Sequence record: NC_001604.1
Origin: Escherichia phage T7
Length of the DNA: 39,937 nt
Direction: 5' to 3' (one strand)
A program made the position numbers and the translations under genes. Positions 9,857 to 10,276 of this stretch are shown here, in pieces. The notes below the pieces were generated by a model that searched no databases, was not told the origin of the DNA, and saw only the letters and a program-made list of their open reading frames with translations. Within the stretch, counting starts at the first letter, position 1, and each line of letters starts with the position of its first letter.

Positions 9857-10276
9857 GTGGAACTGCGGGAGAAAATCCTTGAGCGAATCAAGGTGACTTC
9901 CTCTGGGTGTTGGGAGTGGCAGGGCGCTACGAACAATAAAGGGTACGGGCAGGTGTGGTGCAGCAATACCGGAAAGGTTGTCTACTGTCATCGCGTAATG
10001 TCTAATGCTCCGAAAGGTTCTACCGTCCTGCACTCCTGTGATAATCCATTATGTTGTAACCCTGAACACCTATCCATAGGAACTCCAAAAGAGAACTCCA
10101 CTGACATGGTAAATAAGGGTCGCTCACACAAGGGGTATAAACTTTCAGACGAAGACGTAATGGCAATCATGGAGTCCAGCGAGTCCAATGTATCCTTAGC
10201 TCGCACCTATGGTGTCTCCCAACAGACTATTTGTGATATACGCAAAGGGAGGCGACATGGCAGGTTACGGCGCTAA
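9857..10276 (+). CDS. 2.8: gene 2.8, HNH endonuclease-family protein
   Basis: GTG-initiated 139-aa ORF; motif HRV...HSCDNPLCCNPEHLSIGTPKEN; paralog of gp7.7. Confidence 0.85.
   Translation: MELREKILERIKVTSSGCWEWQGATNNKGYGQVWCSNTGKVVYCHRVMSNAPKGSTVLHSCDNPLCCNPEHLSIGTPKENSTDMVNKGRSHKGYKLSDEDVMAIMESSESNVSLARTYGVSQQTICDIRKGRRHGRLRR

Follow-up and report, generated by a model that had tools for sequence, protein, structure and literature searches.

Free-standing homing endonuclease genes have been described in T4-like phages, where MobE and others are intergenic, promoter-less or co-transcribed and sporadic among relatives, and reportedly promote marker exclusion and co-conversion of their flanks, with cleavage that may occur at a distance from the insertion (PMC2790892, PMC2988022). 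Here we compare two genes of Escherichia phage T7, 2.8 and 7.7, with these and other described systems. The window analysed (39,937 bp) is the T7 genome, and its region from gene 2.5 to gene 3 is 100% identical to records AY264774 and V01127. Gene 2.8 (9857-10276, + strand) encodes a protein of 139 amino acids, gp2.8, with the features of a free-standing HNH/His-Me-finger endonuclease, and gene 7.7 (19848-20240, + strand) encodes a 130-residue member of the same family, gp7.7. A first-pass annotation of the window had placed the two genes at these coordinates and quoted peptides from both products; we recovered both as open reading frames (ORFs), and the same coordinates are annotated in public T7 records (AY264774, PP384404), with gene 7.7 labelled 'HNH endonuclease' in PP384404. 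That 2.8 and 7.7 encode HNH endonucleases is known and annotated already, and our analysis leaves this understanding unchanged and adds detail. We conclude that 2.8 and 7.7 probably function, or functioned until recently, as free-standing homing endonuclease genes. The annotation had offered this as one of two possibilities, and it is supported by the sporadic distribution of the genes, by precise empty sites in relatives and by downstream sequence tracts that are linked to their presence.

The best structural and profile match for the gp2.8/gp7.7 family is I-HmuI of Bacillus phage SPO1 (Protein Data Bank (PDB) entry 1u3e). The two share a layout in which an N-terminal beta-rich region carrying a beta-beta-alpha-metal nuclease is followed by a C-terminal helix-turn-helix (HTH), and they are similar in size (I-HmuI has 174 amino acids, of which the profile alignment covers residues 33-163). 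I-HmuI acts as a monomer, which we count as a further likeness. It nicks one strand. The differences are that I-HmuI is intron-encoded whereas gp2.8 and gp7.7 are free-standing, that I-HmuI lacks the Cys/His zinc loop conserved in the T7 proteins and that the identity is only about 15%. Genes 2.8 and 7.7 lie between protein-coding genes, abutting or overlapping their stops and starts, and so by position are not intron-encoded (no search for introns was made). A second described system, the His-Cys box enzyme I-PpoI (PDB 1a73), shares the zinc/active-site loop with gp2.8 and gp7.7 in sequence, whereas the T7 proteins have a shorter nuclease part and possess an HTH. I-PpoI is a eukaryotic, intron-encoded homodimer that has a second zinc site, lacks an HTH and makes double-strand breaks. 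Among the T4-like enzymes, the Seg proteins belong to the GIY-YIG class and MobE is an HNH enzyme of a subfamily other than that of gp2.8 and gp7.7. For SegG, a T4 free-standing endonuclease, co-conversion has reportedly been traced to a break away from the insertion. For the T7 genes, in contrast to the T4-like systems, homing and cleavage are predicted from sequence comparison. Within T7-like phages, I-TslI and F-TslI form an intron-encoded and free-standing pair of HNH or homing-type endonucleases.

The full-length similarity between gp2.8 and gp7.7 that the annotation had proposed is highly significant. BLASTP aligned the two proteins over 128 residues with 49% identity (E=3e-36), and their Smith-Waterman score was 278, compared with 28.9 +/- 4.9 for 1000 shuffles (z about 50). 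The proposed match to an HNH profile was also found, with both proteins passing the gathering score of Pfam HNH_3 (PF13392; 24.8 bits), gp2.8 at 26.1 bits and gp7.7 at 49.8 bits. Both are contained in phrog_59, 'HNH endonuclease' (gp2.8 E=1e-30, gp7.7 E=3e-33). For the Pfam family zf-His_Me_endon, gp2.8 scored just below the threshold (26.2 against 27 bits) and gp7.7 weakly (17.4 bits). The Pfam HTH matches of both proteins were all sub-threshold, and the C-terminal HTH-like tail that had been predicted for them is instead real by structure modelling and by profile alignment to I-HmuI.

The AlphaFold2 model of gp2.8, built on the 44-sequence alignment described below (mean pLDDT 90.5), shows a domain rich in beta strands at the N terminus and a bundle of three helices at the C terminus, corresponding to a nuclease domain at residues ~1-90 and a three-helix HTH at residues ~95-134; the HTH of gp7.7 lies at roughly residues 86-126. 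A Foldseek search of the PDB with the model returned I-HmuI as the top match (probability 1.0) and I-PpoI as the next. The family profile aligns to I-HmuI across both the nuclease and the HTH (E=1.8e-5), and to I-PpoI over the zinc/active-site loop, HLCHNTRCHNPLHL..DDN (E=2e-3), for which the family consensus is HkCdNplCcnPeHL..keN. In I-PpoI this loop provides the general-base His and the metal-binding Asn, along with three of the four residues that coordinate zinc at the first site.

We assessed conservation in an alignment of gp2.8, gp7.7 and 42 database homologues (44 sequences). In gp2.8 numbering, residues G29, Y30, H59, C66, H71, L72 and N80 are invariant, and C18, W19, H45, R46, C61, D62, N63, N68, P69, D83 and R89 are at least 90% conserved. 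All of these are retained in gp7.7, with equivalents that include C4, H29, H48, C50, C55, H60 and N69. The predicted general-base His and metal-ligand Asn of the His-Me finger are H59 and N80 in gp2.8, equivalent to H48 and N69 in gp7.7. The gp2.8 active-site and zinc-loop codons, which encode LHSCDNPLCCNPEHLSIGTPKEN, span 10031-10096 on the + strand and include those for H59 (10031-10033), C61, C66, N68, H71 and N80 (10094-10096). Conservation of H59-x-C61-x4-C66-x4-H71 together with C18 matches the Cys/His loop of the I-PpoI type, and zinc binding is predicted. In sequence, the active site resembles the zinc-bound I-PpoI loop (H-x-C-x4-C-x4-H...N) more closely than it does a classical HNH motif. 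The 44-sequence alignment contains no second conserved Cys/His cluster, and for this reason we do not file gp2.8 and gp7.7 as His-Cys box members. The modelled picture is of an I-HmuI-like modular layout combined with an I-PpoI-like, zinc-bound His-Me finger, in a small enzyme that is probably monomeric. By analogy with I-HmuI, the HTH should supply sequence recognition. Both proteins are predicted to cleave DNA with the help of a divalent metal, by a nick or by a double-strand break.

Among 2.8 orthologues dN/dS is 0.08-0.37. For gene 7.7, comparison of T7 with the HZ2R8 type gave a dN of 0.23 at saturated dS, so that a ratio to dS is not computable. These values indicate that both proteins are under purifying selection and are not pseudogene-like. 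Scanning for T7 promoter-like sites, we found none belonging to 2.8 or 7.7 themselves. The nearest upstream sites are at 9090-9112 (4 mismatches to the consensus) for 2.8 and at 18528-18550 (perfect consensus) for 7.7, and the genes are read from these class II and class III promoters, respectively.

The family is widespread and its members are scattered. It was detected by tblastn in 1,462 phage records, including those of actinophages and haloarchaeal viruses, and among T7-like genomes it occupies many different map positions. Close orthologues of gp2.8 (at least 60% identity) are found in only about 128 records, mostly T7 isolates, and both 2.8 and 7.7 are missing from most close relatives of T7. 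In IMG/VR, a family member lies directly upstream of gene 3 in 6 of the 80 gene-3 loci, and directly upstream of gene 8 in 5 of the 80 gene-8 loci. Four relatives without 2.8 instead have a family member between genes 3 and 3.5: phiA1122 (locus L004, 2510-2968), Yep_15 (L003, 1310-1759) and loci L117 and L121 (both ~1980-2380). This 3/3.5 gene overlaps its neighbours on both sides, the stop of gene 3 with its own start and the start of gene 3.5 with its own end. An unrelated HNH gene is also present in the 1.7 region of phiA1122 (L004, 524-994). In loci L096 and L101 a family member precedes gene 2.5 and lies upstream of gene 3 by about 1 kb. In two records of apparently derivative T7 strains (MZ375289, OL964748), the gene 7-8 region was matched in two pieces that cover 75% of the query, which is consistent with deletion of 7.7 and with its dispensability.

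At the site between genes 2.5 and 3, comparison with unoccupied relatives defines the insertion of 2.8 precisely. Empty sites were found in PHB20, WW2, Bas103, phiA1122 and T3. In PHB20, WW2 and phiA1122 the GTG of gene 3 follows directly on the gene 2.5 stop (...GACTTCTAA/GTGGCTGGCGCATACGCT, with the slash marking the boundary), and the T3 site reads TTCTA/ATGGCTGGCGCATACGCT; the empty junction of PHB20, phiA1122 or T3 includes …TTCTAAGTGGCTGGCGCATACGCTGCGCG…. In T7 the left junction of 2.8 (9842-9860, + strand) is GGAG...TTCTAA/GTGG, and the same GTGG starts gene 3 in relatives without 2.8. The GTG start of 2.8 (9857) directly follows the TAA stop of gene 2.5. Gene 2.8 therefore occupies the exact former start codon of gene 3 and uses the gene 3 ribosome-binding site, and its GTG start is inherited from gene 3. 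The GTG starts that the annotation had given for both 2.8 and 7.7 were confirmed in the sequence.

At the right junction (10247-10282, + strand), a GGGAGG ribosome-binding site inside the 2.8 coding sequence precedes the ATG at which gene 3 now starts (10257), and further on comes the TAA stop of 2.8 (10274-10276), which falls within gene 3 codons 6-7. Because the 2.8 frame ends inside gene 3, its last 6 codons (HGRLRR, then the stop) use the 5' end of gene 3 in a frame other than that of gene 3. The motif at this junction, ATGGCAGGTTACGGCGCTAAAGGAAT, is common to all occupied 2.5/3 sites: it is identical in T7 and in loci L090, L123, L125 and L163, with one synonymous difference in L170, although identity among the endonucleases at these sites is only 40-84%. 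In unoccupied Klebsiella-phage alleles the N terminus of gene 3 is likewise MAGYGAKG, encoded with other third positions. Relative to L123 (1068-1520), locus L124 (~1460-1500) has lost about 410 nt, so that of an L123-type endonuclease gene only the initial ~26 nt, ATGACACTTAAGGAGAAACTGGAGG, remain and adjoin an occupied-type gene 3 start. L124 thus looks like a loss stage of a homing cycle.

The site between genes 7.3 and 8 has a comparable anatomy. Empty sites were found in JB01, C2, IME390 and T3, of which the first three read TTTAA/aCAGGAGGTGACAC/ATGGCTGAGAAG, the last element belonging to gene 8; the empty junction of JB01 or IME390 includes …CAGGAGGTGACACATGGCTGAGAAGCGTACAGGTCTAGCC…. The intergenic segment TCAGGAGGTTATC (19835-19847, + strand) is the ribosome-binding site that serves gene 8 in relatives without 7.7 and gene 7.7 in T7, where the GTG start (19848) lies 5 nt downstream of AGGAGG. 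A longer GTG-initiated ORF from 19815 is present, and the HZ2R8 orthologue starts at the equivalent of 19848. That orthologue begins with ATGG at the former gene 8 start position, where T7 has TCAGGAGGTTATC/GTGG. Gene 8 restarts via TAATG, in which the 7.7 stop overlaps the gene 8 ATG. At this site the right-junction module combines ...ACATGGAGACA(C/T)ATTTAATGG with nt 1-300 of gene 8. Across the 7.3/8 endonucleases (loci L010-L013 and L035, around 1076-1800; window 20215-20539), the proteins are 47-98% identical, and the last ~20 nt of their genes together with the first 300 nt of gene 8 have 94-100% DNA identity.

Sequence downstream of each insertion differs according to whether the endonuclease gene is present. 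The whole of gene 3 (endonuclease I; 10257-10706, + strand) is a divergent allele that travels with 2.8 and is a candidate co-conversion tract. The nucleotide identities of T7 genes 2.5, 3 and 3.5 to three phages without 2.8 are 96.6%, 73.7% and 92.1% for PHB20, 95.7%, 73.7% and 86.8% for phiA1122, and 83.3%, 73.8% and 83.8% for T3, compared with 93.3%, 91.6% and 90.4% for AH67C600_Q5, which has 2.8. In gene 3, T7 is thus no closer to its near relatives PHB20 and phiA1122 than to T3. The sequences begin to diverge exactly at the insertion point and cease to do so where gene 3 ends, giving a sharp mosaic block with 2.8 at its left.

At the 7.3/8 site, the first ~300 nt of gene 8 (20240-20539, + strand) co-segregate with the endonuclease gene and form a second candidate co-conversion tract. 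Over nt 1-300 of gene 8, identity is 95.8% between occupied loci, 91.9% between unoccupied loci and 82.4% between the two classes. The corresponding values for nt 301-1500 are 94.4%, 92.8% and 93.6%, with no class difference, and the contrast over nt 1-300 gave a Mann-Whitney p=0.001, a value that overstates independence because the sampled loci are phylogenetically related. Fixed differences between occupied and unoccupied loci are at gene 8 nt 21, 24, 27, 57, 99, 108, 120, 123, 126 and 246. The 5' tract of gene 8 may hold a cleavage-immune form of the target, for which the differences at gene 8 nt 21, 24 and 27 and the synonymous changes within gene 3 nt 1-26 are candidate immunity differences. 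Co-conversion that began at a break downstream of the insertion would leave one-sided tracts of this kind, and the 2.8 and 7.7 tracts fit the pattern of the T4-like free-standing endonucleases. They also fit the finding that nuclease genes lie at boundaries of genetic exchange between phages (PMC10448857).

Together these features suggest how 2.8 and 7.7 would spread. When T7 and a related phage without the gene infect the same cell, the enzyme, which would be I-HmuI-like, monomeric and probably nicking, would nick or cut the DNA of that phage, likely near the start of gene 3 for gp2.8 or of gene 8 for gp7.7. Repair of the break by recombination, with T7 DNA as template, would then bring in the endonuclease gene along with downstream sequence, the whole of gene 3 in one case and about 300 nt of gene 8 in the other. 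Insertion would take place on the former start codon, and expression of the downstream gene would be restored through a new or overlapping start. Nuclease activity, the position of the target and present-day homing are what we infer from the comparisons above. Both genes are dispensable: 7.7 can be deleted, is non-essential and has been used as an insertion locus (PMC12153263, PMC9825161), and T7 from which 2.8, 3.8 and 7.7 have all been removed is viable.

Several observations weigh against this proposal. The co-segregation of the tracts with endonuclease presence is correlative and comes from samples that are not independent, and the linked tracts could reflect ordinary mosaic recombination with boundaries that happen to fall at these genes. 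The upstream flank at the 7.3/8 site, gene 7.3, is variable in all relatives and has no tract tied to endonuclease presence; we thus found no upstream co-conversion at this site. The endonuclease bodies at occupied 7.3/8 sites, at 47-71% amino acid identity, are far more diverged than the tract downstream of them, at 94-100% nucleotide identity, which a single homing history does not explain, and body and right flank there seem to have had different histories. Sharing of the right junctions is partly forced, because the endonuclease needs a stop codon and the downstream gene needs a ribosome-binding site; the rest of the sharing may reflect an immune target variant, or endonuclease bodies swapped between fixed junctions. 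The HNH_3 score of gp2.8 is only marginally above threshold, although it is backed by the phrog_59 match at E=1e-30. In the literature searched, in which older T7 papers are thinly covered, we found no report of cleavage, a target site or homing for gp2.8 or gp7.7. We likewise found no biochemical study of either protein there, older T7 work in subscription journals being largely outside the coverage.

The homing proposal can be set against other accounts of how T7 came to have these two genes and why it keeps them. The annotation had called 2.8 and 7.7 paralogous, and they are indeed related members of one family. A recent duplication inside the T7 genome, which would make them true in-genome paralogues, could account for their being closest to each other within the window and for a domain architecture common to both along their full length. 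However, codon-aligned nucleotide identity is only 53%, falling to 36% at third positions with dS saturated, and blastn detects a single 32-nt patch. When family members from T7-like phages are placed in a neighbour-joining tree, the deep branches of which are poorly resolved, the two are not sisters, and at least three lineages occur at each site: the T7-2.8 clade, the L123/L155 clade, L090 and L157 at 2.5/3, and the T7-7.7/HZ2R8 clade, L011 and L035 at 7.3/8. Moreover, phiA1122 and HZ2R8 have 7.7 and lack 2.8. We consider such a duplication highly improbable and reject it. The lack of silent-site similarity and the non-sister placement imply that 2.8 and 7.7 are old members of the family that were probably acquired separately, so that independent invasions by one family are probably the better reading of the sequences.

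The same genes might instead be retained mainly as domesticated counter-defence factors, whose catalysis-independent binding to DNA or DNA ends blunts break-sensing defences such as GAPS4, with homing accounting only for their origin. The co-option that the annotation had suggested as an alternative does have some published support. A 2025 preprint that counts three homing endonucleases in T7, namely 2.8, 3.8 and 7.7, describes a mutant lacking every one of them (bioRxiv 10.1101/2025.09.07.674715): on GAPS4 hosts the plaques of this triple mutant are smaller, wild type outcompetes it only if GAPS4 is active, and catalytically dead bas24_0090 (H77A) and T7 gp3.8 (H34A) restore plating on such hosts, with dead gp3.8 sufficient on its own to relieve protection. 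Purifying selection on gp2.8 and gp7.7 would also be expected of such factors. However, bas24_0090 and gp3.8 are the only proteins for which relief by a single protein is described in this preprint; 2.8 and 7.7 were removed only within the triple deletion, and gp3.8, the one T7 protein examined singly, belongs to a different subfamily. Strict conservation of the catalytic residues would be needless for a purely binding role, most close relatives lack the genes, laboratory lines lose 7.7, and the junction and tract signatures indicate mobility. We therefore regard retention for counter-defence as possible but doubtful. It is less probable still that 2.8 and 7.7 are decaying, inactive relics kept only for the translation signals of genes 3 and 8. 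Their weak GTG starts and their dispensability would suit relics, as would the fact that clean loss needs a precise deletion, given that the 3' end of 2.8 provides the GGGAGG and start context of gene 3 and that the 7.7 stop overlaps the gene 8 ATG. Yet relics should show frameshifts and deletions, as L124 does, whereas both genes are full-length ORFs with every family-invariant residue intact and dN/dS among orthologues well below 1. Functional homing endonuclease genes, present or recent, remain our preferred explanation, and a secondary attenuation of GAPS4, to which gp2.8 and gp7.7 might each contribute in the triple-mutant phenotype, is compatible with it.

Two further T7 genes, and one other kind of HNH protein, were considered. 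Gene 3.8 (11225-11590, + strand), which is missing from the account in the first-pass annotation, is a third, more distant HNH_3 gene (HNH_3 56 bits; tblastn E=3e-8 against gp7.7). Its product falls in phrog_4578 rather than phrog_59 and, unlike gp2.8 and gp7.7, has neither the Cys/His loop nor the HTH tail. Gene 3.8 is absent in PHB20, Bas103 and AH67C600_Q5, in which gene 3.5 is directly followed by gene 4. Gene 5.3 (16483-16839, + strand), directly downstream of the DNA polymerase gene 5, was rejected as a fourth family member: it matches Pfam PDDEXK_5 (42 bits) and encodes a PD-(D/E)XK endonuclease, not an HNH protein, possibly another free-standing homing-type nuclease that is unrelated to 2.8 and 7.7. 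Terminase-associated packaging HNH proteins of the HK97 gp74 type were set aside as a model for 2.8 and 7.7, which adjoin genes 3 and 8 in the DNA-metabolism and head-tail regions, not terminase, and are mostly absent from relatives and dispensable.

Every copy of the family that we examined starts at or overlapping the stop codon of the upstream gene and ends by re-creating the start of the downstream gene, and some copies take over from the downstream gene both its ribosome-binding site and its start codon. At both the gene 3 and the gene 8 site, moreover, endonuclease bodies with only 40-70% identity have a short right-junction module in common. We suggest tentatively that this endonuclease family is specialized to home into the translation-initiation junctions of essential phage genes, a possibility that we hold with less confidence than the homing role itself. 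If it is correct, endonuclease bodies may swap like cassettes between fixed, cleavage-immune junctions, and the ~30 nt with which the downstream ORF opens may contain the target.

T7 serves both as a reference phage and as a common chassis for engineering, and its genes 2.8 and 7.7 are routinely deleted or used as insertion sites. Because gene 3 has its ribosome-binding site and start context within 2.8, and because the 7.7 stop overlaps the gene 8 ATG, such deletions must restore the ancestral junctions. The anatomy of the junctions and the linked tracts is useful detail that yields directly testable target candidates. With its natural occupied and empty alleles and these candidate targets, the T7 group lends itself to the study of homing, of marker exclusion in crosses of the T7 x T3 type and of the proposed counter-defence.

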